Source: a virus
Lineage: Duplodnaviria > Heunggongvirae > Uroviricota > Caudoviricetes
DNA: 36,955 nt
Strand: one strand, 5' to 3'
Virus record (IMG/VR): IMGVR_UViG_2681813166_000002
Coordinates: 1 to 36,955 of that record
Shown here: in pieces, positions 13,693-36,955 of the stretch
Layout of the letters: each line of letters begins with the position of its first letter
How positions within the stretch are numbered: the stretch's first letter is position 1
Notes under the pieces: model-generated
The model's input: only the letters and a program-made list of their open reading frames with translations
Database searches by the model: none
What the model was told of the DNA's origin: nothing
Made by a program: the position numbers and the translations under genes

Positions 13693-13732
13693 TATACCCG
13701 CGAAAAATGAAATTTAACCAGGAGTGCCGCAT

Positions 13733-15957: not shown

Positions 15958-15968
15958 CTGAGGTAATT

Positions 15969-18020: not shown

Positions 18021-18034
18021 TCAGGAGAAATACG

Positions 18035-19240: not shown

Positions 19241-19290
19241 TCATTCAGGGGCGCGGAACCGCGCCCCCTGTTCTGACAGGTGAAAGAATC

Positions 19291-19491: not shown

Positions 19492-19493
19492 GT

Positions 19494-21262: not shown

Positions 21263-21270
21263 GGATCCTC

Positions 21271-21441
21271 ATGTTTGTCAAACCTGTTAAAGGGCGGTCA
21301 GTTCCTGACCCTGCCCGCGGCGACCTTTTGCCCGCCGAAGGGCGAAATGTTGACGAGAACAACTACTGGCTGCGCCGTGAAGCAGCGGGTGATATCCGGC
21401 GCGTGAATAAAAAGGTGAATACCGATGACGATAAGTTTTAA
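21271..21441 (+). CDS. Small DUF2635-like protein preceding the sheath gene (56 aa)
   Basis: Translated by hand: MFVKPVKGRSVPDPARGDLLPAEGRNVDENNYWLRREAAGDIRRVNKKVNTDDDKF. Confidence 0.45.
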   Translation: MFVKPVKGRSVPDPARGDLLPAEGRNVDENNYWLRREAAGDIRRVNKKVNTDDDKF

Positions 21442-22921
21442 CACCATTCCGTCGAATACGCTGGTTCCGTTGTTTTATGCGGAAATGGATAACCAGGCGG
21501 CGAATACTGCACAGGACAGCGGAGCATCGCTGCTGATTGGTCATGCCAATAACGGTGCAGAAATTGTTGCCAACAGTCTGGTACTGATGCCGTCGGCAGA
21601 CTATGCCCGCCAGATTTGTGGTGCGGGAAGTCAGCTGGCGCGTATGGTCGAGGCTTATCGCCAGACTGACCCGTTTGGTGAACTGTATGTGATTGCCGTT
21701 CCTGAATCCACAGGCGCGGCGGCAACGGTTACGCTGACGGTGACCGGGGCGGCAACCGAAACCGGCACGGTGAATGTGTATGTGGGACGTACCCGCGTGC
21801 AGGCACCGGTGACTAACGGCGATAACGTCACGATGATTGCCAGTAGTATTCAGAATGCCATCAATGCCGTTCCGACCCTGCCGTTTACGGCTTCATCTTC
21901 GGCAGGCGTGGTCACACTGACCGCGCGTCATAAGGGGCTTTGCGGGAATGAAATTCCTGTCAGCCTCAATTACTACGGCTTTGGTGGGGGCGAAGTGCTG
22001 CCAGCGGGCGTACAGATTGCCGTGGCGACGGGTACCGCCGGAACGGGTGCTCCGGTTCTCACCGGCGCGGTGGCTGCAATGGCGGATGAGCCGTTTGATT
22101 ATATCGGCCTGCCGTTCAACGACACGGCCTCCGTTAACACGCTGGTGACCGAGATGAACGATACCAGCGGTCGCTGGAGCTATGCGCGTCAGCTGTATGG
22201 TCATGTGTATACGGCAAAGATCGGCACGCTGTCAGAACTGGTGACCGCAGGTGACCAGTTTAACCAGCAGCACATTACCCTGGCGGGGTACGAAAAAGAG
22301 ACCCAGACGCCTGCCGACGAACTGGCGGCAAGCCGTACCGCCCGCGCAGCGGTGTTTATTCGCAACGATCCGGCACGTCCCACGCAGACCGGTGAGCTGG
22401 TGGGTATGCTGCCTGCGCCGAAGGGGAAACGGTTCACGATGACCGAACAACAGACCCTGCTGTCTCATGGCGTGGCAACGGCGTATGTCGAAAGCGGGGT
22501 ACTGCGCATTCAGCGTGATGTCACCACGTACAGGAAAAACGCTTACGGGGTTGCGGATAACAGCTACCTCGACAGTGAGATACTGCATACCAGCGCGTAT
22601 GTACTGCGCAAACTGAAATCCGTCATTACCAGTAAGTACGGGCGTCACAAGCTTGCCAGTGACGGTACCCGCTTTGGTCCCGGTCAGGCGATTGTCACCC
22701 CGGCGGTGATCAAAGGGGAACTGCTGGCAACCTACCGTCAGCTTGAGCGTGCGGGGATCGTGGAAAACTACGAACTGTTTAAGCAGTACCTGGTTGTGGA
22801 GCGTGATGCCAGCGATCCGAACCGCCTGAACACGCTGTTCCCGCCTGACTATGTTAACCAGTTGCGTGTCTTTGCCGTGGTTAACCAGTTCCGTCTTCAG
22901 TATTCAGAGGAGTCTGCATAA
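21425..22921 (+). CDS. Contractile tail sheath protein
   Basis: 498-aa ORF followed directly by a ~118-aa tube gene, the standard myovirus arrangement. Confidence 0.85.
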   Translation: MTISFNTIPSNTLVPLFYAEMDNQAANTAQDSGASLLIGHANNGAEIVANSLVLMPSADYARQICGAGSQLARMVEAYRQTDPFGELYVIAVPESTGAAATVTLTVTGAATETGTVNVYVGRTRVQAPVTNGDNVTMIASSIQNAINAVPTLPFTASSSAGVVTLTARHKGLCGNEIPVSLNYYGFGGGEVLPAGVQIAVATGTAGTGAPVLTGAVAAMADEPFDYIGLPFNDTASVNTLVTEMNDTSGRWSYARQLYGHVYTAKIGTLSELVTAGDQFNQQHITLAGYEKETQTPADELAASRTARAAVFIRNDPARPTQTGELVGMLPAPKGKRFTMTEQQTLLSHGVATAYVESGVLRIQRDVTTYRKNAYGVADNSYLDSEILHTSAYVLRKLKSVITSKYGRHKLASDGTRFGPGQAIVTPAVIKGELLATYRQLERAGIVENYELFKQYLVVERDASDPNRLNTLFPPDYVNQLRVFAVVNQFRLQYSEESA

Positions 22922-23277
22922 TGGCCCGTATCGGGGGAACCTGTTATTTCAAAATTGACGGTCAGCAGCTATCGCTGACCGGCGGCATTGAGGTGCCCAT
23001 GAACAGGACGGTCAATGATGACATCATCGGCCTGGACGGTTCAGTGGACCGCAAGGAAACTCACCGTGCGCCCTATGTCAAAGGGACCTTCAAGGTGCCG
23101 AAGAATTTTCCGGTGAGCAAAATCACCTCGTCTGATGAGATGACCATCACTGCCGAGCTGGCGAACGGTCAGGTCTATGTACTGTCGTCTGCCTGGCTGC
23201 ACGGCGAAGCGAACCATAATGCCGAAGAAGGCACGGTTGATCTTGAGTTCCACGGTGAAGAAGGGGATTACCAGTAA
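22921..23277 (+). CDS. Tail tube protein
   Basis: 118-aa ORF directly after the sheath gene. Confidence 0.8.
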   Translation: MARIGGTCYFKIDGQQLSLTGGIEVPMNRTVNDDIIGLDGSVDRKETHRAPYVKGTFKVPKNFPVSKITSSDEMTITAELANGQVYVLSSAWLHGEANHNAEEGTVDLEFHGEEGDYQ

Positions 23278-23546
23278 TGAAAGAGCTTGAGTTAAAGAAA
23301 CCGATTACTGCTCATGGCGAGACACTCTCCGTACTTGAGTTTGATGAGCCCACCGGGAAAGATGTCCGCGAGCTGGGGTATCCCTACCAGATGAATCAGG
23401 ATGAGTCAGTCAGACTTCTGGCGCATGTGGTATCGAAATACATTGTGCGGCTGGCGAAAGTGCCGCAAAACTCTGTCGACCAGATGTCTCCGGCAGACCT
23501 GAATGCTGCGGCGTGGCTTGTGGCTGGTTTTTTCCTCCAGGCCTGA
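23277..23546 (+). CDS. Tail assembly chaperone (G-like)
   Basis: 89-aa ORF between tube and tape measure genes; overlapping -1 frame ORF downstream. Confidence 0.7.
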   Translation: MKELELKKPITAHGETLSVLEFDEPTGKDVRELGYPYQMNQDESVRLLAHVVSKYIVRLAKVPQNSVDQMSPADLNAAAWLVAGFFLQA

Positions 23547-23695
23547 CGGCTGAATACCTCACTGATCGCTTCTTTGACTGCGCCAGTTACTGGCGCATTA
23601 ATCCCTTCGAATTGCTGAATATGCCGATCAGTGAAATTCCCTTGCTGGTCAGTCAGGCAAACAGGATAGAGCAGGAGAAACGCACACATGGCTGA
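23528..23695 (+). CDS. Frameshift extension of the tail assembly chaperone (T-like, -1 frame)
   Basis: Slippery heptamer T_TTT_TTC at 23528-23534; the -1 frame stays open to 23695, overlapping the tape measure start. Confidence 0.55.
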   Translation, partial: FFPPGLTAEYLTDRFFDCASYWRINPFELLNMPISEIPLLVSQANRIEQEKRTHG

Positions 23696-25520
23696 ATTTG
23701 AGCTTAAGGCGTTGATCACCGGTGTCGACAGACTTTCTCCCGCGCTGTCGAAAATGCAAAAGAAAATCCGGGGATTTAAACGCCAGGCGGAAGAAGCATC
23801 ACAGGGTGGGCTGGCGCTTGGTGGCGGACTGGCAGCGGGTCTGACGCTTTCCCTGAAATCTTATGCCGATCAGGAAAACGCCGCCACCGGGCTGAAAGTC
23901 GCCATGATGGATGCGAACGGCGAGGTCGGAAAGAGCTTTCAGGACATCAATAAACTGGCTATTGGCCTGGGTAACCAGCTACCCGGTACAACGGCTGATT
24001 TCCAGAACATGATGCAGATGCTGGTGCGTCAGGGGATCCCGGCAGAAAATATTCTTGGCGGTGTGGGTAAAGCGACAGCTTATCTTGCGGTACAACTGAA
24101 AAAAACACCGGAAGCGGCTGCTGAGTTTGCTGCAAAGATGCAGGATGCTACCGGAACGGCGTCAGAAGACATGATGGGGCTGTTCGACACTATCCAGAAG
24201 GCGTTTTATCTGGGCGTTGACGATACCAACATGTTGTCCTTCTTCACTAAAACCAGTTCTGTTCTGAAGATGGTGAACAAGGACGGTCTTCAGGCTGCAC
24301 AGAGCCTTGCCCCCATCAGCGTCATGATGGATCAGATGGGGATGAACGGGGAGTCGGCAGGTAATGCCCTGCGAAAAGTTATCCAGTCCGGATTAAGCGT
24401 TAAGAAAATCAGGGACGTCAATAAAGTCATGGCCCGCCAGAAACTCGGAGTGCAGCTCGATTTTACTGACGGCAAAGGGAGTTTTGGCGGTCTTGATAAC
24501 ATGTTTAAGCAACTGGCAAAGCTGCGAAAACTGACCGACGTTAAGCGAACAGGTGTACTTAAGGCAATATTTGGTGATGATGCCGAAACCCTTCAGGTGG
24601 TCAATGCTCTGATCGATAAAGGAAAGGATGGTTACGATCAGATCCAGCAGAAGATGAATAAACAGGCCAGCCTGAATAAACGTGTTCAGGCACAGCTTGG
24701 TACGCTGTCCAACCTGTGGGAGGCAATGATGGGGACCGCAACTAACGGTCTTGCAGCTATTGGCGGCGCATTTTCTGGTGACGCTAAAAATATCACGCAA
24801 TGGCTGGGGGAGTTGGGGGAAAAATTCACGAAGTTTGCGGATGAAAATCCCCGGGTTATTCGCGGCGTCGTCGGGCTTGCTGCCGGTCTTGCGATTCTGA
24901 AACTGGGATTGATGGGCGTGGGCAGTGCCATCAGTATTGTCAGCAGGATCATGTCGATGACGCCGATTGGCATGATTGCGACGGCGATTGCTCTGGCTGC
25001 GGGATTAATTATCACTAACTGGGATGTAGTTGGACCTTATTTTAAGAAACTCTGGGAAACCATTGGTCCTTATTTTGAGGCTGGCTGGGAACTCCTTAAG
25101 AAAGTTTTTGCCTGGTCGCCGCTGGGGATGGTGATCAATAACTGGGGACCGGTTGTTAAGTGGTTTCAGGATATGTGGGATAAGCTGAAGCCGATTATTG
25201 AATGGTTTACCGACAGTTCCGGTGACACGGTCGATACCATTAACTCGGCGCAGTGGGGCGCGGGTGCTTATGATGCTTATGGGACGGGAATACCGGCACG
25301 GGGATACACTCCTTATCCGGCGGTGGATCCGGCTCAGGCAAACAACGCCTCCGATGCCACAGGCTCGAATCCCTTCATGATTAATAAAGCTACCGCGCCA
25401 AAAGTTGATGGTGAGATCAAGGTATCATTTATAAATATGCCACCAGGTATGCGGGTTACGGAAACACGCTCCAGTGGCATTGATATAAATCACGATGTTG
25501 GCTATACCCGATTTTGGTAG
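23688..25520 (+). CDS. Tail tape measure protein
   Basis: 610-aa ORF, Ala/Gly-rich helical with hydrophobic central segments. Confidence 0.85.
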   Translation: MAEFELKALITGVDRLSPALSKMQKKIRGFKRQAEEASQGGLALGGGLAAGLTLSLKSYADQENAATGLKVAMMDANGEVGKSFQDINKLAIGLGNQLPGTTADFQNMMQMLVRQGIPAENILGGVGKATAYLAVQLKKTPEAAAEFAAKMQDATGTASEDMMGLFDTIQKAFYLGVDDTNMLSFFTKTSSVLKMVNKDGLQAAQSLAPISVMMDQMGMNGESAGNALRKVIQSGLSVKKIRDVNKVMARQKLGVQLDFTDGKGSFGGLDNMFKQLAKLRKLTDVKRTGVLKAIFGDDAETLQVVNALIDKGKDGYDQIQQKMNKQASLNKRVQAQLGTLSNLWEAMMGTATNGLAAIGGAFSGDAKNITQWLGELGEKFTKFADENPRVIRGVVGLAAGLAILKLGLMGVGSAISIVSRIMSMTPIGMIATAIALAAGLIITNWDVVGPYFKKLWETIGPYFEAGWELLKKVFAWSPLGMVINNWGPVVKWFQDMWDKLKPIIEWFTDSSGDTVDTINSAQWGAGAYDAYGTGIPARGYTPYPAVDPAQANNASDATGSNPFMINKATAPKVDGEIKVSFINMPPGMRVTETRSSGIDINHDVGYTRFW

Positions 25521-25611
25521 CCAGAATTCCCCTCACATGTATTGCTGGTTGTAAGTCATAAATAGAGTGATAGAATTAATGCACATTTAGAAAAATGTTA
25601 ATAGGCGAAAA

Positions 25612-26142
25612 ATGAAAGGCTATATCACAGCAAGTGTAATTCTTGGAGTAGCGGCTATTTTTTCATCTCTCATAATCTCTGGCAACATCTCCTTTAAAGA
25701 TGAACATATTATTCAGTTATCTGGAGGAGCTATAAAACTTGGTGATGTTTATAAAGAAAATAAATTGATAAGTGCAAAGATTATTTTTCCAGATAATCAG
25801 GGTGAACAGATTCTTGTTGTCGACGGCAATCCTGAAAACTTTAAGGAGGATTTTCAGGAGAAATTAAATAAAGTAATAAAAACTTTAAATGCGTCAAAGA
25901 AAAAAGATGAAGAGAAAGTTAGCCTGGATAATTTAAGTGTTATTGAAGAGTCTAAACTAGAGCTCGTTTCTGCGGTGCGTTACTCTGCTCAGTATGTTCC
26001 TATGTTTACTCTGACGCTGGACAAAAAAGAAATTACCATGCCTAAAAATACGGTAATATTTCCATTTGCCAGCGATGAAACAGCTAAGTATTTAAATGAA
26101 CAACAGCAAAAGTATAAAGATTCGTTGTTTCTGACTCGCTAA
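25612..26142 (+). CDS. Hypothetical membrane-anchored moron protein (176 aa)
   Basis: AT-rich ORF with N-terminal TM/signal anchor ASVILGVAAIFSSLIISG, own RBS and own terminator, inserted between tail genes. Confidence 0.65.
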   Translation: MKGYITASVILGVAAIFSSLIISGNISFKDEHIIQLSGGAIKLGDVYKENKLISAKIIFPDNQGEQILVVDGNPENFKEDFQEKLNKVIKTLNASKKKDEEKVSLDNLSVIEESKLELVSAVRYSAQYVPMFTLTLDKKEITMPKNTVIFPFASDETAKYLNEQQQKYKDSLFLTR

Positions 26143-26159
26143 TTAATAAAATTCATTAC

Positions 26160-26190
26160 AAGGCCACCTTCTAATAGGTGGCTTTTTTAT
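26160..26190 (+). terminator. Intrinsic terminator after the moron
   Basis: GCCACCT-tctaat-AGGTGGC followed by TTTTTTATTTT. Confidence 0.65.
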
Positions 26191-26203
26191 TTTCGGAGTG
26201 TAT

Positions 26204-27532
26204 ATGACGTGGAAAGACAGGCTTCAGGATGCGTCATTTCGAGGTGTGCCGTTTAAGGTTGAAGAAGAAAGTGCGGGAACCGGCCGTCGTGTGGAAACAC
26301 ACGAATATCCGAACCGCGACAAACCCTATACCGAAGATCTGGGAAAAGTCACTTTCCGCCCGTCCATCACAGCTTATGTGGTGGGAGATGACTGCTTTGA
26401 CCAGCGCGATCGCCTGATTGAAGCGCTGAATAAACCCGGTCCCGGCACGCTTGTCCACCCGACATATGGTGAGCTGAAAGTCTGTGTTGACGGGGAAGTT
26501 CGGGTCAGCACATCGAAAAGTGAAGGGCGTATTGTCCGCTTTGACCTGAAGTTTGTCGAAGCGGGAGAACTCTCTTACCCCACATCAGGTGCGGCGACGG
26601 CGCAGACGCTGATGTCATCCTGTTCTGCACTGGATGACTGCATCAGTGACAGTTTCAGTGGTTTCAGTATCGATGGCGTGGCAGATTTTGTGCAGAACGA
26701 CGTCGTCGGTAATGCCGGCACAATGCTTGGGTATATTTCTGATGCGATGAAAGTGGTGGATTCTGCCGTATCGGATGCCGCCAGGCTGTTGCAGGGGGAT
26801 ATCTCGGTACTTCTGCCGCCGCCATCGTCAGGCAAAAATTTCGTTGAGCAGGTGCAGAAAATGTGGCGTACCGGGAAACGCCTTTATGGTAACGCCAGCG
26901 ACCTGGTCACCATGATCAAAACGCTTTCCGGTGTCAGCCTCGGCAGCGATCTGCAACCGCGCGGCGTCTGGAAAACGGACAGTAAAACCACCGCTACGGC
27001 GACGCAGCAGCGTAACGTGGTTGCCAGCACCCTTCGTACGACCGCAATCAGCGAAGCGGCGTATGCCGTCACCCGATTGCCTGCGCCAACAACTTCCGCG
27101 GTGATGCAGAATGCCGCAGTAGGGCAGGCAACAACAGCTGCGCAGAGCACCGGCTGGCCTTCCGTTACGCATCCGGCACTGAACAATGCACCGGCGGTGA
27201 AAAACACGGTTGATCTGTCGACGTGGGAAGAACTGACTGACATTCGCGACACACTGAATACGGCAATTGATAAGGAGTTGTCCCGTACAACCAGTGATGC
27301 GCTGTTTCTGGCGCTGCGCCGGGTGAAAGCAGATCTGAATGCGGATATCAACACGCGCCTTGAACAGTCTGCACGGATCATTCAGCGCACGCCGGATGAG
27401 GTTTTACCCGCGTTGGTGCTGGCGGCGACCTGGTTTGATAACGCGGCGCGTGACGCGGACATTATCCGGCGTAATGCCATTACGCATCCCGGCTTTGTGC
27501 CGGTGATCCCTCTGAAGGTGCCAGTGCAATGA
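26204..27532 (+). CDS. DNA circulation protein (Mu gp43-like)
   Basis: N-terminus MTWKDRLQDASFRGVPFKVEE, the characteristic motif of this family; GGAG RBS. Confidence 0.85.
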   Translation: MTWKDRLQDASFRGVPFKVEEESAGTGRRVETHEYPNRDKPYTEDLGKVTFRPSITAYVVGDDCFDQRDRLIEALNKPGPGTLVHPTYGELKVCVDGEVRVSTSKSEGRIVRFDLKFVEAGELSYPTSGAATAQTLMSSCSALDDCISDSFSGFSIDGVADFVQNDVVGNAGTMLGYISDAMKVVDSAVSDAARLLQGDISVLLPPPSSGKNFVEQVQKMWRTGKRLYGNASDLVTMIKTLSGVSLGSDLQPRGVWKTDSKTTATATQQRNVVASTLRTTAISEAAYAVTRLPAPTTSAVMQNAAVGQATTAAQSTGWPSVTHPALNNAPAVKNTVDLSTWEELTDIRDTLNTAIDKELSRTTSDALFLALRRVKADLNADINTRLEQSARIIQRTPDEVLPALVLAATWFDNAARDADIIRRNAITHPGFVPVIPLKVPVQ

Positions 27533-28608
27533 ACGATAACGTCACGCTACGGGTAAATGGCCGGGAGTGGAATGGCTGGACATCAGTGCGCATCGGTGCC
27601 GGTGTTGAACGACTGGCGCGGGATTTCAGTGTGGAGATCACCCGCCAGTGGCCGGGAGATGAGGGTATCACCACGCTTCAGCCGCGCATTAAAAACGGTT
27701 CAAAAGTGGAGGTGCTGATTGGTGATGAGCTGGTGATCACCGGCTGGGTGGAGGCGACGCCCGTTCGTTACGATGCCCGTTCGGTCAGCACCGGTATTGC
27801 CGGACGCAGTCTGACTGCTGACCTGATTGACTGTGCAGCCGAACCGACACAGTTTAACGGACGATCGCTGGTACAGATTGCGCAGGCGCTTGCTGCGCCT
27901 TTCGGCATTGAGGTGGTGAACAGCGGTGCGCCGTCGGGTGTTATTCCTGATGTCCAGCCTGATCACGGTGAAACGGTGATCGAGGTAATCAACAAAATAC
28001 TCGGTCAGCAGCAGGCGCTGGCTTATGACGACCCGCACGGCAGGCTGGTGATTGGCGGTATTGGCTCAACGCGGGCACATACCGCGCTGGTACTTGGGGA
28101 AAACATCCTTTCCTGTGATACGGAGAAGAGTATCCGGGAGCGGTTTTCAGTTTACCAGGTGGCGGGGCAGCGTGCCGGAAACGACGATGATTTCGGTGAG
28201 GCCACCACCACCGCGCTGCGGGCCCGCACAGAGGACGCATTTATTGCCCGTTACCGTCCGATGTATATCAGGCAGACAGGGCAGGCCACGGGGGCAGGCT
28301 GTATTGCGCGTGCTGACTTTGAAGCCCGACAACGGGCGGCGCGGACGGATGAAACCACCTATGTGGTGCAGGGCTGGCGACAGGGTAACGGTACGCTGTG
28401 GCAGCCCAACCAGCGGGTGATTGTCTTCGATCCGGTCTGTGGTTTCGACAATACCGAACTGCTTGTCTCGGAAGTCACGTTTACTCAGGACCAGAACGGC
28501 ACCCTGACGGAAATCCGTGTCGGCCCACCTGATGCTTATCTGCCTGAACCCGAAGCCCCCGGCGCGCGGAAAAAGAAAAAAGCCAGAGTACAGGAGGACC
28601 CGTTCTGA
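27529..28608 (+). CDS. Baseplate hub / tail protein (Mu gpP-like)
   Basis: 359-aa ORF in conserved order after the DNA circulation gene. Confidence 0.75.
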   Translation: MNDNVTLRVNGREWNGWTSVRIGAGVERLARDFSVEITRQWPGDEGITTLQPRIKNGSKVEVLIGDELVITGWVEATPVRYDARSVSTGIAGRSLTADLIDCAAEPTQFNGRSLVQIAQALAAPFGIEVVNSGAPSGVIPDVQPDHGETVIEVINKILGQQQALAYDDPHGRLVIGGIGSTRAHTALVLGENILSCDTEKSIRERFSVYQVAGQRAGNDDDFGEATTTALRARTEDAFIARYRPMYIRQTGQATGAGCIARADFEARQRAARTDETTYVVQGWRQGNGTLWQPNQRVIVFDPVCGFDNTELLVSEVTFTQDQNGTLTEIRVGPPDAYLPEPEAPGARKKKKARVQEDPF

Positions 28609-29156
28609 TGAGGACGATTGAAGCCATGCAGCGACAACTCCTCGGCCTGATTGGGCGGGCAGTGGTGAAAAGCATCAGTGCCGCCACGAAATGTCAGACC
28701 GTGGATGTGTCCCTGATTGCCGGTGAACCCAAAGCCGGGGTTGAACATCTTGAACCCTACGGTTTTACCGCAAGGGCAAACAGCGGTGCGGAAGCGGTGG
28801 TGTTGTTTCCGGATGGTGACCGTTCTCATGCGGTGGTTGTTACGGTGTCGGACCGGCGCTACCGCCTGAAAGGGCTGCAGACGGGTGAGGTGGCGGTCTA
28901 TGACGATCAGGGGCAGTCCGTGACGCTGACCCGGGAGGGGATCGTGGTGGACGGTGCAGGTAAAACGATCACGTTTCGCAATTCACTTAAAGCACGTTTT
29001 GAAATGGACCTGGAAGTGACAGGACAGGTGAAAGACCTGTGCGACTCTACCGGCACCACCATGTCAGCGATGCGGCTTGCCTATAACGGGCATCGTCACA
29101 GAGAGAACGGTCAGGGCAGTAACACCGACAAACCTGATAAAGCGATGGAGGCATGA
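28608..29156 (+). CDS. Baseplate assembly protein V-like (spike)
   Basis: 182-aa ORF in conserved order. Confidence 0.7.
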   Translation: MRTIEAMQRQLLGLIGRAVVKSISAATKCQTVDVSLIAGEPKAGVEHLEPYGFTARANSGAEAVVLFPDGDRSHAVVVTVSDRRYRLKGLQTGEVAVYDDQGQSVTLTREGIVVDGAGKTITFRNSLKARFEMDLEVTGQVKDLCDSTGTTMSAMRLAYNGHRHRENGQGSNTDKPDKAMEA

Positions 29157-29581
29157 TGGAACTGTGGCTGACGGTGAACGGTAAACGCACCTGCGCCAGC
29201 GCACCGCTGGATCCGCTGACCCGCGCCGTGGTGATTTCCCTGTTCACCTGGCGGCGGGCGGAGCCTGATGACAATGCCGACGTCCCGATGGGATGGTGGG
29301 GGGATACCTGGCCTGCGGTACAGAATGACCGTTACGGCTCCCGACTGTGGCTGCTTCAGCGCAGCAAACTGACCAATCAGCTGGTGCAGACGGTAAGGGG
29401 GTATATCCGCGAATGCCTGCAATGGATGATTGATGACGGCGTGGTGTCCCGTATTGATCTGGATATCCGCCGCACCGGGATTAATGTGCTGGGTAACAGT
29501 ATCACCCTCTGGCGTCGTGATGGACCAGTAATGATTTCTTTTGATGATCTGTGGAGTGCGATAACGCATGGCGGACAGTGA
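29153..29581 (+). CDS. Baseplate protein (Mu gp46 / gpW-like)
   Basis: 142-aa ORF in conserved order. Confidence 0.7.
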   Translation: MMELWLTVNGKRTCASAPLDPLTRAVVISLFTWRRAEPDDNADVPMGWWGDTWPAVQNDRYGSRLWLLQRSKLTNQLVQTVRGYIRECLQWMIDDGVVSRIDLDIRRTGINVLGNSITLWRRDGPVMISFDDLWSAITHGGQ

Positions 29582-30626
29582 ATTTCAGCGCCCGACGCTG
29601 GCAGAAAATATCAGTATGCTCCGTAACGATTTATTCGCCAGGCTGGACGTCAGCGACACGCTCCGGCGCATGGATGAAGACGTGCGGGCAAAGGTGTATG
29701 CGGCGGCGCTGCATACGGTTTACGGGTACATCGATTATCTGGCATTGAACATGCTGCCTGACCTGTGCGATGAGTCCTGGCTGGCGCGACATGCTGCGAT
29801 GAAACGGTGTTCGCGCAAGGGGGCCACGACTGCCAGCGGGTATATGCGCTGGGAAGGCGTCAGCGATGGCCTGAAGGTGACCGCCGGGAGTGTTATTCAG
29901 CGCGATGACCTGGTTCAGTACACGGCAACTGCCGATGCAACCAGCGCCGGTGGTGTCCTGCGCGTGCCGATCGCCTGCTCAAGTGCAGGCGCGGTCGGTA
30001 ACGCTGACGACGGTACAGCATTAATCCTGGTCACGCCGGTGAATGGTCTGCCGTCTTCCGGCGTGGCAGATACCCTGACAGGTGGATTTGATACTGAAGA
30101 GCTGGAAACGTGGCGCGCCCGCGTCATTGAGCGGTATTACTGGACGCCGCAGGGCGGGGCTGACGGGGACTATGTCGTCTGGGCTAAAGAAGTGCCCGGC
30201 ATTACCCGCGCATGGACATACCGTCACTGGATGGGAACGGGAACTGTCGGTGTGATGATTGCCAGCAGTGACCTGATTAATCCCATTCCGGAAGAATCAA
30301 CGGAAACGGCGGCAAGACAACATATCGAGCCACTGGCCCCGGTGGCAGGCTCTGATTTGTATGTATTCAGGCCGGTGGCGCATACGGTGGATTTTCATAT
30401 CCGCGTGATGCCGGACACACCGGAAATACGGGCTGCCATCACCGCGGAGTTGCGTTCGTTTCTTCTGCGTGATGGTTATCCGCAGGGAGAACTGAAGGTA
30501 TCGCGTATCAGTGAGGCGATTTCCGGTGCGAACGGGGAATATAGCCATCAGTTGCTTGCACCGGCAGACAATATCTCCATTGCGAAAAATGAACTGGCGG
30601 TTCTGGGGACGATTTCATGGACGTGA
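29568..30626 (+). CDS. Baseplate J-like protein (Mu gp47-like)
   Basis: 352-aa ORF in conserved order. Confidence 0.8.
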
Positions 30627-31201
30627 CAAACGATGATTACATCCGTCTGTTGTCGGCACTGTTGCCCCCCGGTCCGGCGTGGTCAGCCGGCGATCCGGCG
30701 ATTGCCGGTGCGGCACCGTCATTAACCCGCGTTCATCAGCGTGCGGATGCCCTGATGCGGGAGCTGGATCCGCGCACAACCACCGAACTGATAAACCGCT
30801 GGGAGCGTCTGTGCGGCCTGCCGGATGAATGTATTCCGGCAGGGACGCAGACCCTTCGCCAGCGTCAGCAACGGCTGGATGCGAAGGTTAATCTGGCGGG
30901 CGGCATCAATGAGGATTTTTACCTTGCACAGCTTGCTGCCCTGGGCAGACCAGACGCCACCATCACGCGATACGACAAAAGCACGTTCACCTGCTCATCT
31001 GCCTGTACTGACGCGGTGAATGCGCCGGAATGGCGGTATTACTGGCAGGTCAACATGCCAGCCGCCACCAACACCACCTGGATGACATGTGGCGATCCCT
31101 GTGATTCCGCACTGCGTATCTGGGGGGACACCGTTGTCGAGTGCGTGCTTAACAAACTCTGCCCGTCGCATACCTACGTAATTTTTAAATATCCGGAGTA
31201 A
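30617..31201 (+). CDS. Tail protein (Mu gp48-like)
   Basis: 194-aa ORF in conserved order preceding the fibre gene. Confidence 0.7.
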
Positions 31202-31204
31202 TCC

Positions 31205-31996
31205 ATGCATCGTATAGACACGAAAACCGCGCAGAAGGATAAGTTCGGCGCGGGTAAAAACGGTTTTACCCGTGGTAACCCCCAGACCGGCACACCTGCC
31301 ACCGATCTTGATGATGACTACTTTGATATGTTGCAGGAAGAACTCTGCAGCGTGGTGGAGGCATCCGGTGCCAGCCTGGAGAAGGGGCGGCATGACCAGC
31401 TGCTTACCGCGCTTCGTGCGCTGCTGTTAAGCCGCAAGAATCCGTTTGGCGATATCAAATCGGATGGCACGGTGAAAACGGCTCTCGAAAACCTTGGTTT
31501 GGGAGAAGGCTCTGCATTACCTGTTGGTGTGCCTGTTCCATGGCCTTCAGCCACACCGCCAACAGGCTGGCTGAAATGCAACGGTGCAGCTTTTTCTGCT
31601 GAAGAATACCCGGAACTGGCAAAGGCTTACCCGACAAATAAATTGCCTGATTTACGCGGTGAATTTATTCGTGGCTGGGATGACGGGCGTGGTATTGATG
31701 CTGTACGTGCCTTGCTAAGTCTTCAGAATGGAGGAGTGGAATCACACACCCACCAAGGGCAGCTCTTCAGAGTTAGTGATTATCGTACAAAAGAAATACC
31801 AGCATCAGAAGTTATGGGAAGAGGATATATTGCAAGCCTGACGCCGGGTGCTGATAGCCCACTTGATTTTGATGATTATTCTGTATCTTCTAATCCAAAT
31901 GGATATTTTGTCGGGAATCAGAGAACAACAGCATATGGGATAAATGAAACCCGTCCACGGAATATTGCATTTAACTATATCGTGAGGGCTGCATAA
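31205..31996 (+). CDS. Tail fibre protein: constant N-terminal part fused to variable C-terminal part in its current orientation
   Basis: 263-aa ORF with a tail-collar-like segment ([22 protein letters not shown]); recombination site inside the gene at ~31482-31507. Confidence 0.8.
31482..31507. promoter_or_regulatory. Left crossover site of the invertible segment (gix/hix-like)
   Basis: CTCTCGAAAACC-TT-GGTTTGGGAGAA, a 26-bp imperfect palindrome resembling the hixL/gixL consensus as I recall it. Confidence 0.6.
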
Positions 31997-32598
31997 TGGA
32001 TAACGCTGTATTAAATAGCGAGTTTATTGCTACAAAGGCGGGGAATATTACCGTCTATAACTATGATGGCGAAACACGGGAATATATTTCCACATCAACT
32101 GAATATCTTGCCGTTGGTGTCGGTATCCCTGCATATTCCTGTTTAGATGCCCCTAGCATACATAAGGCGGGTTATGCTATCTGCCGTTCGATGGATTTAA
32201 ACTCATGGGAATATGTGCCAGACCATCGCAGTGAAATTGTCTATAGCACCGAAACGGGAGATACCAAAGAAATCACAGCTCCGGGTGATTACCCTGAAAA
32301 TACAACCACTATCGCACCGTTAACGCCATACGATAAATGGGATGGTGAGAAATGGGTGACAGATACTGAGGCACAACACGGTGCTGCAGTAGAAGTGGCA
32401 GAAGCACAACGCCAGTCACTGATTGATACAGCAATGGCTTCCATTAGTCTGATTCAGCTGAAATTACAGGCCGGACGGAAGTTGACGCAGGCAGAAACAA
32501 CCCGACTTAGCGCCGTGCTGGATTACATTGACGCGGTGGCGGCAACAGATACCAGCACCGCGCCGGATGTCATCTGGCCTGAACTGCCGGAGGTGTAG
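31996..32598 (+). CDS. Tail fibre assembly protein (U-like), expressed orientation
   Basis: 200-aa ORF directly after the fibre gene with ATG overlap. Confidence 0.75.
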   Translation: MDNAVLNSEFIATKAGNITVYNYDGETREYISTSTEYLAVGVGIPAYSCLDAPSIHKAGYAICRSMDLNSWEYVPDHRSEIVYSTETGDTKEITAPGDYPENTTTIAPLTPYDKWDGEKWVTDTEAQHGAAVEVAEAQRQSLIDTAMASISLIQLKLQAGRKLTQAETTRLSAVLDYIDAVAATDTSTAPDVIWPELPEV

Positions 32599-33007
32599 GC
32601 CATTCAATATCTGGCGCACCGGTAGTATCGACTAGCTCCAGTGCGTCCAGATAATCCAGCCACGAATTATATTGCGCCAGTTCCTCGCCTTTCAGACGAC
32701 CAATAGCGGCTTTACCGGGCCATTGTTTACTGTTCATGTATTCGTTGGCCTGATTAAGCAATAATTGCCTTTCTGATTCTGCCTGTTGAATAAGTTCTTC
32801 ATGTGATGGTGGAGGTATTAGTGCCCATGTGGGTAATCCATTTTTTCCTGCAACACGAATTTTGTCATCTGGAGGCGTATTGATTGCAAATTCATTATAA
32901 ACATCATCACTGACAGCCAGAGCATCATCTGGCCATGAATTTGCATTAATGTAATCATCCTTAAGTGCAGGATTCACAAAAATGTTTAAAGATGGACTAT
33001 AAAACAT
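32570..33007 (-). CDS. Alternative tail fibre assembly protein (U'-like), opposite orientation
   Basis: 145-aa minus-strand ORF, convergent with U and sharing the C-terminal motif (APDIEWPTPP versus APDVIWPELP). Confidence 0.7.
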   Translation of the reverse strand: MFYSPSLNIFVNPALKDDYINANSWPDDALAVSDDVYNEFAINTPPDDKIRVAGKNGLPTWALIPPPSHEELIQQAESERQLLLNQANEYMNSKQWPGKAAIGRLKGEELAQYNSWLDYLDALELVDTTGAPDIEWPTPPAVQAR

Positions 33008-33008
33008 A

Positions 33009-33398
33009 TTACACCCCTATAGCGATATAACGACCTAATACAGCGTTTGCAGCAGTCGCTATGCTTGAAAAACCGCGGAACTGATTTGATGTAATTGCAG
33101 AAGCCGACAGGATTCCTGCGCCTGAAGGTGTATGCCCCACATGACTAACTATCATTCCATAACATGCTGACGGAAAGGCAAAAGGAAAATCGTTAAGATA
33201 TCCGGCATCTTCACCACCAGACCCACCAAATCTCGCCTGCCCCCACTGAATAATCAGTGTTCTCCGGGAACCTGAAATAATTAACGGGATCGTTACATAC
33301 CCATTCAGGCCAATGACACCCGATGCAGTGCCAGCCAGAGATAATTCTCCCAAACCAACGTTTATGAAAATGTAGAAATAACGAGCAAATGGCATCAT
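33009..33398 (-). CDS. Alternative tail-fibre C-terminal segment (Sv'-like); no promoter or start of its own in this orientation
   Basis: Minus-strand ORF contains the right crossover site in frame (…NVGLGELSLAG… versus …[11 protein letters not shown]… in the expressed fibre). Confidence 0.65.
   Translation of the reverse strand: MMPFARYFYIFINVGLGELSLAGTASGVIGLNGYVTIPLIISGSRRTLIIQWGQARFGGSGGEDAGYLNDFPFAFPSACYGMIVSHVGHTPSGAGILSASAITSNQFRGFSSIATAANAVLGRYIAIGV
33345..33370. promoter_or_regulatory. Right crossover site of the invertible segment, partly degenerate
   Basis: TTCTCCCAAACC-AA-CGTTTATGAAAA; its left arm is identical to the reverse complement of the left site's right arm; the outer arm is degenerate. 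Confidence 0.5.
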
Positions 33399-33424
33399 TC
33401 CTGCTTTTGTCAGGGAGATCCACC

Positions 33425-33515
33425 ATGCTTATTGGCTACGTACGCGTATCAACAAATGACCAGAACACCGCTCTGCAACGTAATTCGTTGAACTGTGCAG
33501 AATGTGAGTTGATTT
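33425..33515 (+). pseudogene. Truncated Gin/Hin/Pin-family serine DNA invertase (first ~30 codons only)
   Basis: MLIGYVRVSTNDQNTALQRNSLNCAECELI matches the invertase N-terminus including the catalytic serine region, then diverges into AT-rich sequence with an early stop. Confidence 0.8.
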
Positions 33516-33699
33516 TGAAGATAAAATCAGTGGCACAAAGTTCAATAAAAATATACCTGACACATTATACGAAGAAGATTTTATGGTTTTTTCTGTTGAT
33601 TTTTTAACATGGCTGCATGGATACAGATATGACGAAGGTAATGTAGAGTAGTAAGAACATAAATAGGCTGACAAAAGTTCAGCCTACAGTCTTTTCATC

Positions 33700-34584
33700 T
33701 TATCTTACAGCTGGTGTTTGAGGTGGCTTCGTTTTCGTTTTTTTCACGCCCTTGTTTTTTACTATTTCCAGTGCCCTTTTCTGAAGGTCTACTCCTGATG
33801 GATAGAGCACGTTGAGAATGTGCTCAGTCAGTCGGTACGCATCAAACAGATCACTTTGAGTTAAACCTGATGCTGCGTGACTCCCTTCATTACCTAACCA
33901 CTTAACAGCAAATAAAAGTCCATCTAACTTTCCAAATGTTTTTTTTCTATGTGCAGCTATGGTAATTCGTTCATGAAGAGACATGAGGCACCGCTCGCGC
34001 TTGGACTTACCCTTCCGCTTAATTAATTTGTATTTTGGTATATTGTATTCAGATAAAAGATTCTCTATTGCCATTCTAACCTTGTTTGCTGCTGAGCTTG
34101 GCGAAAGTAGTGTCAGTGAAAATGCTTCTTGCAAATTCTCATATACTTCAGATGGACATGTTGTGGGGATATCTATGTACTGTAGCGGAGGGATAAATAC
34201 TTTGGGGATGTAATAGCTAAAGTACTCCTGTATCTGTTCATCTCGATCATTTACAGTAATATCCATCTCAACATAACCAGTGCCTGAGCAGACGACAACT
34301 TCCTCGCATTCATGATTTTCGCATACCAGAACCGCAGTAAAAACCTCTTTAATCAGTTCTGTATCGGAGCCGAGAATCTCAATAAGATTATGTGATTCAC
34401 TAGTTACCTTTGCATAAAATTTTTCTTTATTTAATTTCAAACTGCTTCTTCCGCAACTTGGGCACGGGTATGTCACGTAGTCATTTACTTTGAAAGGTTT
34501 ACCAATTGAAAACTTATCCATTTTTCTCTCGTTAATTTCTCTATGAATGGTTGCTACTGAGTTTACCAACACTGTGTTTTGCAT
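33700..34584 (-). CDS. Hypothetical 294-aa protein: N-terminal zinc ribbon plus C-terminal helical domain with an R-x5-H motif
   Basis: AT-rich ORF; CPSCGR...CENHECEE cysteine cluster; C-terminal ERITIAAHRKK and KWLGNEGSHAAS. Confidence 0.7.
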   Translation of the reverse strand: MQNTVLVNSVATIHREINERKMDKFSIGKPFKVNDYVTYPCPSCGRSSLKLNKEKFYAKVTSESHNLIEILGSDTELIKEVFTAVLVCENHECEEVVVCSGTGYVEMDITVNDRDEQIQEYFSYYIPKVFIPPLQYIDIPTTCPSEVYENLQEAFSLTLLSPSSAANKVRMAIENLLSEYNIPKYKLIKRKGKSKRERCLMSLHERITIAAHRKKTFGKLDGLLFAVKWLGNEGSHAASGLTQSDLFDAYRLTEHILNVLYPSGVDLQKRALEIVKNKGVKKTKTKPPQTPAVR

Positions 34585-34807
34585 GCAATTTGCATGGAGT
34601 AGAATAAAAAAATCGGAAGTTGTCCGCTATCTCACAAATTTCCGCAAGCAATAACATCGCTAGCTTTAATACTTTAGCTCTCTCGATTTCTTGTTAATAG
34701 GAGTATGGGATTAATAATCCATACTCCTCGTTTTAAGGCAGCTAATAGACGCCTTTTGATGGGGTTAATAATATCATAAAAGAATTTAAAAATAACTTCA
34801 TTGTCTA

Positions 34808-35248
34808 TTAGTAACTAATGGTTATCGTAAACATAAATGTAGTTAGTTGACAAAAACCTACGACTGATAACATTATTTTTATCCAGAAAAAAAATAAGGC
34901 GGGGTAATTTATACAATTTGGTGGTTCTTTTAAATTATGTGTTTTTTTATCAAGTCCATTTTCCTCAAGATATTTTTCTCTTCTACGACCAAGCATTCCC
35001 CAAATAATAGTGGTTGCAGCATATTGCAGAAAATCCATTATTAAAGACATAACCAAGAACACTAATGACCAATATAGTGTATTGGGAAATAATAGAATTG
35101 TCTCAGACGAAGATCCTACTGAACTATTACTTATACTTCCCTTGAATAACCATATCAATGCAATCCCACCTAGACATGATTGCCTGTTAATATTTGATAG
35201 TGAACCGCTCGCATCATAGTATGCTTGCTGTATTTTATCTAAAAGCAT
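34808..35248 (-). CDS. Hypothetical integral membrane protein (146 aa)
   Basis: Several hydrophobic helices; start overlaps the stop of the upstream small gene. Confidence 0.6.
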   Translation of the reverse strand: MLLDKIQQAYYDASGSLSNINRQSCLGGIALIWLFKGSISNSSVGSSSETILLFPNTLYWSLVFLVMSLIMDFLQYAATTIIWGMLGRRREKYLEENGLDKKTHNLKEPPNCINYPALFFFWIKIMLSVVGFCQLTTFMFTITISY

Positions 35249-35535
35249 TACAGTACCTTCTTAATATTTGCACGTTTAGGCCCTGTACTGGTAGTCATTT
35301 TAGGCACATTTTCGGGGATGAGAATATTTTCGCTTGAAATTATTGCCCAGTTGCCTTTTTTTATTTGTCTGGTATTTAAATATGCTCGCCCATTTTTTAT
35401 AGTAATAAACCTTGAGTTTATAGAAACTCTTCTCGTCCTGTCAGGATTATCTTTTTTGGCTAATGTAATGCTGACTCTGGTAATCTTTGGATTTGATATA
35501 TGCATATGTACACGTAAGCCACGACTTTTTTTCAT
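35248..35535 (-). CDS. Hypothetical small basic protein (95 aa), first gene of a two-gene operon
   Basis: GAGGGG RBS 6 nt upstream of ATG (MKKSRGLRVHMHISNPK...); the track ORF extends further upstream without an RBS. Confidence 0.5.
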   Translation of the reverse strand: MKKSRGLRVHMHISNPKITRVSITLAKKDNPDRTRRVSINSRFITIKNGRAYLNTRQIKKGNWAIISSENILIPENVPKMTTSTGPKRANIKKVL

Positions 35536-36208
35536 TATCCCCTCACTGATACTAGCTTTAACACTGTGATACAATAACTTATATTTATGAATAAAATCAA
35601 TTGATAAATTGTAGCATTTCGGTGGCATGGAAGTTACTGTCACTACAAGCAGGTAACAACACACTCTCCTTGTTTATAACAGTAACGCACTTCAATCATG
35701 TCAAATATATGGCGGTCGAGAAATAAAGTGGCCTATAGCTATTCACTCGGGAACTGCGGCTCCTTTGCGTATCCTTTTTTGTCTCTTCACCTTCTGGTCG
35801 GTGTCTTGCTGAGATTTATAACTTCCTGTTTTTGTTGGTGTTGTCCTTACACCCTCCAATCATGATTGGCTGGCGGTAGTTGAACCCGCAGACACGTCGT
35901 ATGCAAGGACTTGCTGCGGCTGGATGGTGGACTTTCGATAGTGCGAGTATTGAATGATTTCCATCTATTATAGATTTTACCGTATTTCGGCATGAATGAA
36001 ATTGAATATCCTCCCACCGACCCTCCATGACTTTACACCACTGTCTCTGGGGCTGCTATGTGCCAAAAGCTGACATCTTCATTTTCGATGAATTTGTCAG
36101 CTACATATTATGACGCTTTCATATTTTGATGCTTTTCCCTAAATAATACTAACCCAATTCTCATCTATTTCGCTATCAATCTTAATCGTATTTAATAACT
36201 TGCAGTCA

Positions 36209-36955
36209 CTATCTATATAGCCTTTTTGCTAATGGTTCTATGGATGATGAATAGCAAAACTCTCTATTCATATTGTCTATCAATTCAAAAACTTGATCTT
36301 CAACCTCATAGTAATCATTTCTAGGCAATCGAGGATGGATTATTCCAAAATTTCGAAGCAAATTTGTGATGTTATTTTGATGTCTTACGTAAGAGAAAGA
36401 ACCTGATTTGGCTAGTGAACATGCAGTATTTGAGTCACTTATAGCACTGTTTAATTTTACAATCAGATTGCAGTAGTCTTGAGATATGGATGTAGAGCCA
36501 GAACGAGACTTATTAAAAATGATGTTATACCATTTGAATATATCAAATGAAGATGCGGATAGACGATCTCTTTTATTTATTTCGTATGATAAGTACTCTT
36601 GAAATATCTTAAAGTGTGATATATGGTTGCCAAGAGCTGACACGCTGACACTATTAGTATACCCAAGCAACGCAACAACTATTCCACCTATGCTAGCGAC
36701 TAACCCCAACAATATGAAAGTTGCTTGCAATATTAATATTGATTGTGAGTAACCTTTAGTAAAATTTGAAATGCAGGTATTATTGAAACAAAAACTCCGA
36801 TTAAAAAAACCTTCTTGCATTCCAGTTAAAATAAATGAAGTTACAAAAAGCATTATGCCTAGTGTAACAATAGTAATCAAACATAGAAGCAAGATTCTAA
36901 GAGAGTGTGAGTCTATTTTTTTTAGAAGGATATAACTTTTAAAAAAGTTTTTCAT
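36209..36955 (-). CDS. Hypothetical protein with two N-terminal TM helices and a soluble C-terminal domain (248 aa; start at window edge)
   Basis: AT-rich ORF; hydrophobic segments ILLLCLITIVTLGIMLFVTSFIL and ILILQATFILLGLVASIGGIVVALLGY; the ATG is the last three bases of the window, so the true start could lie beyond. Confidence 0.55.
   Translation of the reverse strand: MKNFFKSYILLKKIDSHSLRILLLCLITIVTLGIMLFVTSFILTGMQEGFFNRSFCFNNTCISNFTKGYSQSILILQATFILLGLVASIGGIVVALLGYTNSVSVSALGNHISHFKIFQEYLSYEINKRDRLSASSFDIFKWYNIIFNKSRSGSTSISQDYCNLIVKLNSAISDSNTACSLAKSGSFSYVRHQNNITNLLRNFGIIHPRLPRNDYYEVEDQVFELIDNMNREFCYSSSIEPLAKRLYR

Follow-up and report, generated by a model that had tools for sequence, protein, structure and literature searches.

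A probable two-slot cargo region, including a retron Ec48 effector gene, between a truncated tail-fibre invertase gene and the attachment site of a temperate prophage

The window analysed here is the whole 36,955-nt stretch of the IMG/VR virus record IMGVR_UViG_2681813166_000002 (Caudoviricetes). An earlier note on this DNA described its right end as AT-rich up to the window end, with four genes on the minus strand. The open reading frame list contains these four genes (33700-34521, 34808-35248, 35248-35535 and 36209-36955). GC content is 0.356 at 33542-35742 and 0.315 at 36066-36955, compared with 0.543 in the structural genes (13000-31200) and 0.494 in the whole window. The AT-rich character (0.32-0.36 vs 0.54) is thus confirmed for these two intervals, but does not extend to the 320-bp segment between them (35743-36065), with a GC content of 0.471. 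The intervals are called slot 1 and slot 2 below, slot 2 being cut by the window end; both carry their genes on the minus strand. An Rfam search of 33000-36955 at E ≤ 1 gave no match, a scan for tRNA and tmRNA genes found none in the window or in three loci, and a promoter and terminator scan did not exceed the expectation from shuffled sequence.

The left border of slot 1 is formed by the remnant of a pin/gin-type serine invertase gene (33426-33546, plus strand). It follows an invertible tail-fibre segment flanked by a pix/gix-like crossover site (31489-31507) and its inverted repeat (33345-33363), the latter located just upstream of the remnant; the 19-nt arms, AAACCTTGGTTTGGGAGAA and TTCTCCCAAACCAACGTTT, are 95% complementary. 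The segment lies in the opposite orientation in E. coli EC6563, and in all related prophages homology to the window restarts at 33345. Of the 184 codons, the remnant retains the first 40; at ~33512 one nucleotide is missing, a run of five T being shortened to four, which gives a -1 frameshift. No full-length invertase (catalytic domain and C-terminal HTH, ~184-190 aa) was found here beyond codons 1-40, while pinE of K-12 e14 is intact (184 aa, 555 nt). Judged by its sequence, the remnant is non-functional, and NCBI annotates its counterpart in the twin locus of EC6563 as [quoted passage not shown]. Truncation of the invertase had been proposed earlier, with a breakpoint at ~33512. The truncation holds, but alignment to the full-length pin genes of loci L005 and L006, to other related prophages and to K-12 e14 revealed nucleotide homology persisting to 33541-33546 (codon 40 of 184). 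Position 33512 was accordingly dropped as a recombination junction, being a frameshift within continuing pin homology. In the relatives with an intact invertase (L005, L006 and K-12 e14), pin coding sequence, rather than window-like DNA, continues where the window diverges. Independent pin truncations were observed in L008 (237 nt), L007 (288 nt) and phage phi458 (279 nt), with different cargo in each.

The first gene of slot 1 (33700-34521, minus strand), with a terminator-like hairpin (33663-33687, minus strand) just 3' of it, encodes a 273-aa protein, its start taken at M22 of a 294-aa ORF. Pfam detects a DUF4145 domain above threshold, and the protein combines an N-terminal Cys4 zinc ribbon, split by a β-rich insertion, with this C-terminal domain of HEPN fold. 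Among 18 homologues, C88 and C93 are invariant, and C41 and C44 nearly so (294-aa numbering); H236 is also invariant. In Yersinia and Providencia prophages, homologues stand on their own. In L005 and L006, a 231-aa DUF4145 protein follows the full-length pin; it has no detectable similarity to the window protein, RAZR or any PADLOC model, and the two genes are therefore not alleles.

Like RAZR (PD-T7-4), the window protein is the product of a single gene and has an N-terminal Cys4 ribbon and a C-terminal DUF4145 HEPN-like domain. RAZR is a ring-activated zinc-finger RNase, activated by assembling around ring-shaped phage proteins (Zhang et al., Nature 2026, PMC13017515). The window protein also shares with RAZR a G-N-x-G-x-H motif and the eight-residue spacing of the catalytic dyad (R-x7-H; R146/H154 in RAZR). 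It differs in being ~55 residues longer, with the β-rich insertion inside the zinc-ribbon domain, and in having a lysine (K228) at the position of the dyad arginine, where only 3 of the 18 homologues have arginine. The sequence relationship is marginal, with a weak partial match to the PD-T7-4 HMM (E 0.0036), a model matched by 13 of the 18 homologues (best 1.2e-6). Comparison of the protein profile with the RAZR structure 9y9c was not significant (E 0.44), yet the alignment was colinear including the linker; the HEPN structures 7ae2 and 5yep were also matched, and a phmmer search of the PDB with the protein gave no match. From these comparisons the protein reads as a distant sister subfamily of RAZR/PD-T7-4 rather than a member. 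By analogy with RAZR, it would bind a multimeric phage protein via its zinc ribbon, oligomerise and cleave RNA, leading to abortive infection.

The remaining genes of slot 1 encode p95 (35248-35535, minus strand), a strongly basic 95-aa protein with a pI of 11.9, and p146 (34808-35248, minus strand), a 146-aa membrane protein with two to three hydrophobic segments. The stop codon of p95 and the start codon of p146 share nucleotides (TAATG). Neither protein has a match in Pfam, NCBIfam, PHROGs or PADLOC. p146 belongs to a large unannotated family of 1122 clusters at 50% identity (clusters taken at E ≤ 1e-3), with invariant residues W33, D72, Y76 and K124; a weak DUF7420 signal was detected in 6 of 49 p146 relatives, and a literature search found no paper naming DUF7420. 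p95 is conserved over its full length within enterobacteria (75-81% identity), and its AlphaFold model is poor (pLDDT 51). Its C-terminus, ...TTSTGPKRANIKKVL, ends in TSTGPKR. At all nine loci examined, the ORF upstream of the membrane gene ends in (S/T)STGP(K/R), 5-29 nt before the membrane gene start, and the synonymous codons used for the motif vary between loci. In two distant pairs (L028 and L029), the small ORF is conserved solely in the C-terminal STGP(K/R), its N-terminal part being unrelated.

The p95/p146 pair is found without other window cargo in Serratia, Enterobacter and other genera, and recurs at classic moron sites in lambda-like and P2-like prophages, including the P2 S-V/orf30 variable site (L020 and L021; PMC3091744). 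In other loci it adjoins AbiC/HNH_2 and AAA_21+RloB genes. In a lambdoid prophage (L018), a homologous pair lies downstream of the repressor gene, the place of rexAB in lambda. RexB is a 144-aa membrane protein, and RexA/RexB and p95/p146 are alike, in working principle only, as two-gene prophage modules in which the second gene encodes a small multi-pass membrane protein. In contrast to Rex, p95 has 95 aa against 279 aa for the corresponding partner, the pair has no detected sequence similarity to any annotated family, and we know of no Rex counterpart of the conserved STGP(K/R) tail. We propose that, of the translationally coupled pair, p95 may be a sensor or regulator and p146 a membrane effector. 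It is possible, although we hold this only tentatively, that temperate phages share a large two-gene system, not described before, of which this pair is the first member to be noticed. In such a system, the small protein would sense infection, or gate translation through ribosome arrest at Gly-Pro, and the 3-TM protein would then kill or close the cell, following a Rex-like logic with unrelated parts. Should this be so, the action of the 3-TM protein would amount to abortive infection or superinfection exclusion.

Alternatively, the DUF4145 gene and p95/p146 might not be anti-phage genes, and might instead have toxin-antitoxin, lysogenic-conversion or regulatory roles, which we consider unlikely. 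p95, for example, could be a translational-arrest leader (xxGP, cf. SecM RAGP) controlling a membrane protein for phage lysis or entry control. Conservation of the tail alone, as in L028 and L029, is typical of leader and arrest peptides, and the stop-start coupling of p95 and p146 also fits such an arrangement; the full-length conservation of p95 in enterobacteria, however, suggests a folded protein and not a mere leader. The lack of PADLOC matches for p95/p146 is likewise set against the recurrence of these modules where exclusion and defence genes sit. HEPN proteins are also frequent toxins of toxin-antitoxin systems, in line with the matches to 7ae2 and 5yep, whereas the PD-T7-4 model, which most of the DUF4145 homologues match, is a validated one.

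Between the slots lies a conserved non-coding segment (35743-36065), the relic of an ssrA (tmRNA) attachment junction. Positions 35743-35866 resemble the DNA immediately 3' of ssrA in most E. coli, positions 35867-35889 (minus strand) repeat the final 28 nt of ssrA in degenerate form (5 nt deleted, one substituted), and positions 35890-36065 correspond to a phage-type arm. The exact 28-nt ssrA 3' end is present in the same segment in L003, L007 and L008, and the Rfam tmRNA 3' end was matched in the twin locus. Homology of the window to other pin prophages, which ends at 33541, resumes over this segment, and the segment is conserved at the ends of prophages in E. coli in thousands of cases. No simple history accounts for the orientation of the relic, a point that we count against the accessory-arm reading given below.

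The sole gene of slot 2 within the window (36209-36955, minus strand), with a hairpin downstream of it (36068-36102), encodes the complete 248-aa 2TM effector of retron Ec48 (type IV; also Retron-Eco6), 100% identical to WP_129467586.1 from EC6563. It contains two strong hydrophobic segments and matches the curated equivalog model NF038235 over its full length (7e-68; 228.5 bits with a cut-off of 65; profile positions 2-218 of 219), as well as PADLOC 2TM_IV (1.9e-82). The four genes had been called uncharacterised, which is incorrect for at least this one and, at the domain level, for the DUF4145 gene. The window ends exactly on the effector ATG, so that the reverse transcriptase (RT) lies outside it and was hidden from the earlier note.

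E. coli EC6563 matches 33345-36955 at 99.6%, and is the only genome in which the RT, ncRNA region and attR of this locus were seen, outside the window. Past the position of the window end, a 407-aa RT (PADLOC RT_IV 2.4e-163), ending 16 nt before the effector start, is followed by a long non-coding stretch between the RT start codon and the attR arm, a 46-nt repeat of the thrW 3' end, and then yagP'-paoD. The order of putative ncRNA region, RT and effector is that of Ec48; for msr/msd, no Rfam family matched at E ≤ 1. This retron copy is rare, occurring in 5 of 5426 complete E. coli genomes. The Ec48 RT-msDNA complex is described as guarding RecBCD, with inhibition of RecBCD by a phage freeing the 2TM effector and leading to abortive infection (Millman et al. 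2020, as cited in bioRxiv 10.1101/2022.08.27.505566). The slot 2 retron would be expected to work in the same way, its RT-msDNA guarding RecBCD and its 2TM effector being released upon phage inhibition. The window copy differs from retron Ec48 as known in occupying a phage slot beside attP(thrW), a context for which a literature search found no description.

In EC6563, thrW and the integrase gene lie at the opposite prophage end. Flanking repeats or att-like sequence had been suggested as a check, and the thrW 3' end repeat supplies the att sequence past the window, while terminal inverted or direct repeats at the slot boundaries are limited to short matches at chance level. Window-type homology resumes again ~300 bp before attR, and this arm is common to thrW prophages with differing slot 2 cargo, as expected of an attP arm. 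The deposited complete genome of phage phi458 contains, in order, a truncated pin, the conserved segment, a slot 2 gene and the thrW attP core, demonstrating that the region is located inside a phage genome.

These observations bear on the suggestion that the prophage does not include the AT-rich DNA (or not the retron at least), which would then be a chromosomal island or prophage remnant of its own, in tandem at thrW. Such an origin is improbable. It would suit thrW, which is known to harbour islands (vat in L002), the likeness of the ssrA-junction relic to an old element boundary, and strain NS-NP030, where the retron and attR arm adjoin a quite different, lambdoid prophage. However, the thrW core is absent from the window, leaving no copy between pin and the retron effector, and the sole thrW repeat in EC6563 sits past the RT; the contiguous order in phi458 and the arm shared by thrW prophages with varied slot 2 cargo argue in the same direction. 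Probably, 33542-36955 instead forms the accessory arm of a temperate prophage whose tail is of the e14/Mu type, between the invertase gene and the att site. An accessory arm between the tail-fibre genes and attP is normal for this phage group, and by analogy the arm appears comparable to the lambda b region.

Comparison of related prophages demonstrates the variability of both slots. At least six different contents were found between the conserved flanks of slot 1 (including L005-L008, L016 and L022), and many between the two constant flanks of slot 2. Alternative cargo includes McrA (K-12 e14), RnlAB, HEC-08 and HNH, and AbiTii with DUF6650; conserved flanks with unrelated content, and known defence systems within that content, mark the region as a hotspot. 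The earlier note's view of it as an obvious place for defence genes is borne out by the retron Ec48 effector and by McrA, RnlAB, HEC-08 and AbiTii. One slot 2 cargo consists of a DMT transporter and an aminotransferase, which are not defence genes, and thus the slots are not exclusively defensive. The modules are also distributed independently: FDAARGOS_1267 and four or more further strains carry the DUF4145, p95 and p146 block but not the retron, and NS-NP030 has the retron without the block.

The idea of a secondary insertion or replacement therefore survives in part, since replacement destroyed the invertase and delivered defence-type cargo, but a single insertion does not agree with modules that are independently distributed. 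Entry into pin of one mobile element, whether an IS, a transposon or an integrative island, bringing all four genes together would fit the abrupt composition shift and loss of pin homology at 33541, but is already largely refuted and very improbable, as 33542-36955 contains no transposase or integrase ORF (ORF list, Pfam), its boundaries have no terminal repeats beyond short chance matches, it is interrupted by the segment conserved in thousands of prophage ends, and its parts are found separately in other genomes. The stretch very probably comprises two exchangeable cargo slots and three conserved anchors: the pin 5' end, the 320-bp ssrA-junction relic and the thrW attR arm beyond the window. 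The feature is real and mostly of known kinds, with one promising unknown.

In the proposed pathway, related prophages would swap cargo by recombination in the anchors, and illegitimate exchange at one end would have deleted the 3' part of pin, in this case everything past codon 40. The cargo consists of independent modules transcribed leftward, and the prophage most likely expresses them against other phages. Similar variable, AT-rich, non-essential regions between phage genes and att are present in e14 (pinE-mcrA-attR), the lambda b region and the P2/P4 hotspots (Rousset et al., bioRxiv 10.1101/2021.01.21.427644; Vassallo et al., bioRxiv 10.1101/2022.05.12.491691), likewise with defence genes that differ between otherwise homologous prophages. 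The present region differs from these in having two adjacent slots parted by a fossil ssrA attachment junction, and in that turnover has repeatedly eroded the neighbouring invertase at different points. No account of a hotspot between pin and att came up in literature searches.

The region from invertase to att thus represents a two-slot exchange site for defence genes in e14/Mu-tail-type and some lambdoid prophages, and the anchors offer a simple means of seeking new systems across thousands of E. coli genomes. Retron Ec48 is thereby placed beside attP(thrW) as cargo borne by a phage. The same prophage encodes lambda Gam, which belongs to the class of proteins that trigger Ec48, providing a testable conflict within one prophage. 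The divergent RAZR-like protein, with its enlarged zinc-ribbon domain, offers a natural test of how this domain sets trigger specificity, and p95/p146 represents a two-gene membrane module of wide distribution, as yet unnamed in databases, in which a peptide motif is sharply conserved.

The GC content drops from 0.54–0.60 in the tail and baseplate genes to 0.31–0.43 from about position 33400 to the end of the window, and this right end holds four ORFs of substantial size, every one on the minus strand, so that base composition and ORF calls agree with an earlier note describing an AT-rich right end with four minus-strand genes. By feature, GC is 0.356 at 33542–35742 and 0.315 at 36066–36955, with a value of 0.471 for the intervening 320-bp stretch. 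Position 33426 is the start of a pin/gin-type invertase gene (MLIGYVRVSTNDQNT...), whose reading frame is broken at ~33512. Alignment with related prophages revealed that this break is a 1-nt deletion within a T run, and that nucleotide homology to pin persists to 33541–33546 (...EDKISGTK, codon 40 of 184). An identical pin pseudogene is listed in the NCBI annotation of the near-identical right end of Escherichia coli EC6563. The invertase is therefore truncated as proposed, while the breakpoint had been placed ~30 nt too early. The proposal that cargo replaced the 3' end of the invertase also holds in substance; that of a single inserted island does not.

Homology shared with many other pin-carrying prophages starts at 33345, where the invertible tail-fibre segment has its right-hand crossover site (inverted repeats at 31489–31507 and 33345–33363), ends at 33541, and restarts at 35743–36065; a second shared block comprises the ~300 bp that adjoin attR within the phage. 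These blocks thus delimit two exchangeable regions, slot 1 at 33542–35742 and slot 2 from 36066 to ~1.8 kb beyond the window end. In both the window and EC6563, pin is cut at codon 40, slot 1 carries genes for a DUF4145 protein, a 146-aa membrane protein (p146) and a 95-aa basic protein (p95), and slot 2 carries retron Ec48. FDAARGOS_1267 has the same slot-1 block with a DMT transporter and an aminotransferase in slot 2, and the lambdoid prophage of NS-NP030 has retron Ec48 in slot 2 and a slot 1 without the window's block. In 5CRE51, pin is cut at 288 nt and followed by RnlAB, with a 379-aa protein in slot 2; in GPEC1035, it is cut at 237 nt and followed by a 365-aa protein, with no slot-2 entry. 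DETEC-P61 and OZ038590 have a full-length (frameshifted) pin followed by a 231-aa DUF4145 protein unrelated to that of the window, and slot 2 of DETEC-P61 holds HEC-08 and HNH. K-12 e14 has an intact pinE followed by mcrA and attR, with no slot-2 entry. The slot-2 flanks enclose different cargo in many further genomes, and the window-type retron was found in only 5 of 5426. Transposase, integrase and terminal repeats were sought at the slot boundaries, and none was found. The HEC-08 of such thrW prophages is a candidate defence gene (PADLOC 1e-173), accompanied in slot 2 by the HNH protein (comparison locus L005, 7837–8937 and 10147–11514); others have an AbiTii and DUF6650 pair there (records H142/H143).

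The segment at 35743–36065 is a conserved homology anchor, kept in prophages whose integration sites are thrW, dusA and prfC. In relatives, it reproduces the final 28 nt of ssrA (tmRNA) exactly; the window has a degenerate copy at 35867–35889 (minus strand), with a 5-nt deletion and one substitution relative to them. The portion at 35743–35866 is ~90% identical to the sequence that directly follows ssrA in most E. coli, and also matches the distal end of the K-12 ssrA island. Given the ssrA 3'-end copy and the likeness to ssrA-downstream sequence, the segment appears to be a fossil ssrA attachment junction with a host-derived flank of ~120 nt. A ~100-nt piece of it (35883–35980) recurs at ~81–88% identity in three other places, a chromosomal ykgJ–ecpE intergenic region, a second prophage site of NS-NP030 and the tfa–attP interval of the lambdoid HK106 (comparison loci L001 24663–24749, L003 5470–5567 and L017 3001–3100). 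A search of Rfam with this dispersed non-coding element gave no match.

The corresponding region of EC6563 (NZ_CP095856.1) is 99.6% identical to window positions 33345–36955; the DUF4145 protein, p95 and the product of the last ORF are identical, and p146 has two residue differences. The EC6563 prophage is located at the tRNA-Thr gene thrW, after proA, with its integrase adjoining the tRNA. The window terminates exactly at the start codon of its last gene. Past this point, EC6563 contains a gene for a 407-aa reverse transcriptase, a non-coding stretch and a 46-nt repeat of the thrW 3' end (attR), followed outside attR by a truncated LysR gene and paoD. Neither a tRNA nor the thrW core was found in a search across the window. 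The left end of the window (bet, exo, gam) is unlike EC6563, and the window therefore comes from a related, non-identical prophage. In the deposited complete genome of phage phi458, the order is truncated pin, conserved segment, slot-2 gene and thrW core, placing the slots inside the phage genome, adjoining attP. In the same phage (host E. coli MC1061; locus L016), the tail-fibre region contains a copy of IS1 and pin is cut down to 279 nt, features reported at 2588–3285 and 3793–4071; a phage of this group can evidently do without the invertase.

The invertible tail-fibre segment at 31508–33344 is reversed in EC6563 (L001 10135–12000), and the dead pin remnant is identical in the two (33345–33600, 100%). 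Opposite orientations despite an identical dead pin suggest inversion by a pin-family invertase acting in trans. The query, whose matches include pin 5' ends and the ssrA-relic segment, hit a median of 2 places in a genome and at most 10. An alternative to a trans-acting invertase is that the opposite orientation arose through cassette exchange by recombination.

The slot-2 gene in the window (36209–36955, minus strand) encodes the 2TM effector of retron Ec48, and the module boundary downstream of the gene has a hairpin (36068–36102). The reverse transcriptase of the EC6563 locus is of type RT_IV. Since the effector stands alone in the window and the retron has three parts, the window holds one third of a known system. 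Ec48 is reported to act as a guard of RecBCD, with phage inhibitors of that complex as its trigger (Millman et al. 2020, as cited in bioRxiv 10.1101/2022.08.27.505566). The window also encodes a full-length RecBCD inhibitor, a lambda-type Gam, at 1121–1417 (minus strand; Pfam PF06064, 3.4e-65), adjoining the Bet/RecT and Exo genes. Because Gam belongs to the reported trigger class, induction of the prophage might set off the retron that it carries. The early region of EC6563 differs from that of the window and is without gam.

The first slot-1 gene (33700–34521, minus strand) encodes the DUF4145 protein, its start being assigned to M22 of a 294-aa ORF because all homologues begin there and the EC6563 locus is annotated likewise. 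The protein contains a conserved Cys4 zinc ribbon, interrupted by a β-rich insertion, and a C-terminal DUF4145 domain (Pfam 2.4e-10) with an invariant G-N-x-G-S-H. The same architecture is found in PD-T7-4 (RAZR, a ring-activated zinc-finger RNase), which assembles around ring-shaped phage proteins and then cuts RNA (PMC13017515). The PD-T7-4 HMM matched the window protein at an E value of 0.0036 only, and matched 13 of its 18 homologues (best 1.2e-6); alignment of the family profile with the RAZR structure 9y9c was weak but colinear. The slot-1 protein has a lysine where the RAZR dyad has an arginine. These comparisons indicate a distant relationship between the two proteins. In Yersinia and Providencia prophages, homologues occupy accessory positions by themselves, and the gene is thus a single-gene module. 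We infer that it encodes a putative RAZR-like abortive-infection RNase, whose trigger, expected among portal or other ring-forming proteins, probably differs from that of RAZR.

The remaining slot-1 genes encode p95 (35248–35535), which is strongly basic (pI 11.9), and p146 (34808–35248), which has 2–3 hydrophobic segments and a start overlapping the p95 stop codon (TAATG). Close relatives are few and enterobacterial, and the two genes move as a pair, unaccompanied by the DUF4145 gene. When 1.84 billion representatives were searched with a profile, 1122 clusters related to p146 were found, mostly of 125–150 aa with full-length matches; across 49 sampled members, W33, D72, Y76 and K124 do not vary. 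Searches of Pfam and PADLOC with p146 gave no applicable family. In all nine loci inspected, including distant metagenomic ones where the small ORF is otherwise unrelated to p95, the ORF directly upstream of the membrane gene ends in (S/T)STGP(K/R), 5–29 nt before it. The motif is encoded by varying sets of synonymous codons, showing that selection acts at the peptide level. In one representative (P0163), p95 and p146 are apparently fused. In a lambdoid prophage, the pair lies downstream of the repressor gene, at the position of rexAB in lambda. Its other contexts are an e14-like int–icd end in Serratia and neighbourhoods with AbiC, HNH_2 and AAA_21+RloB genes, as well as the P2 S–V/orf30 variable site (PMC3091744). 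Our best guess is that p95 and p146 are a putative sensor or regulator and a membrane effector, acting in exclusion or abortive infection; that p95 is instead a translational-arrest leader is a live alternative. At comparison locus L029 (~3790–4000), which holds a distant pair, the small partner upstream of the p146 homologue is not basic and ends in a GSTGPRV tail, preceded by what resembles, judged by eye only, a cold-shock/OB-type sequence (...GQGQIQNNAGVFAFQSG...). This likeness may hint that the small partners are nucleic-acid binders.

Further AT-rich patches (GC 0.37–0.41) lie within the prophage at 2001–3000, 7001–9000 and 25001–26000, one of them containing a 472-aa ORF (7037–8455, minus strand) without a match in Pfam. 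In EC6563, genes for a cytosine methyltransferase and an ATP-dependent nuclease come directly after the antiterminator Q gene, on the opposite strand. This may be an additional cargo slot.

The AT-rich feature is real, and its content is mostly of known kinds, namely a prophage defence hotspot, retron Ec48 and a RAZR-like HEPN protein. As far as the literature could be searched, the new elements comprise the arrangement of two slots about an ssrA-junction relic, pin erosion that has recurred at differing points, the phage-borne Ec48 beside attP(thrW), and the p95/p146 family, marked by an STGP(K/R) signature. A systematic catalogue of slot 2 would probably give more defence candidates.
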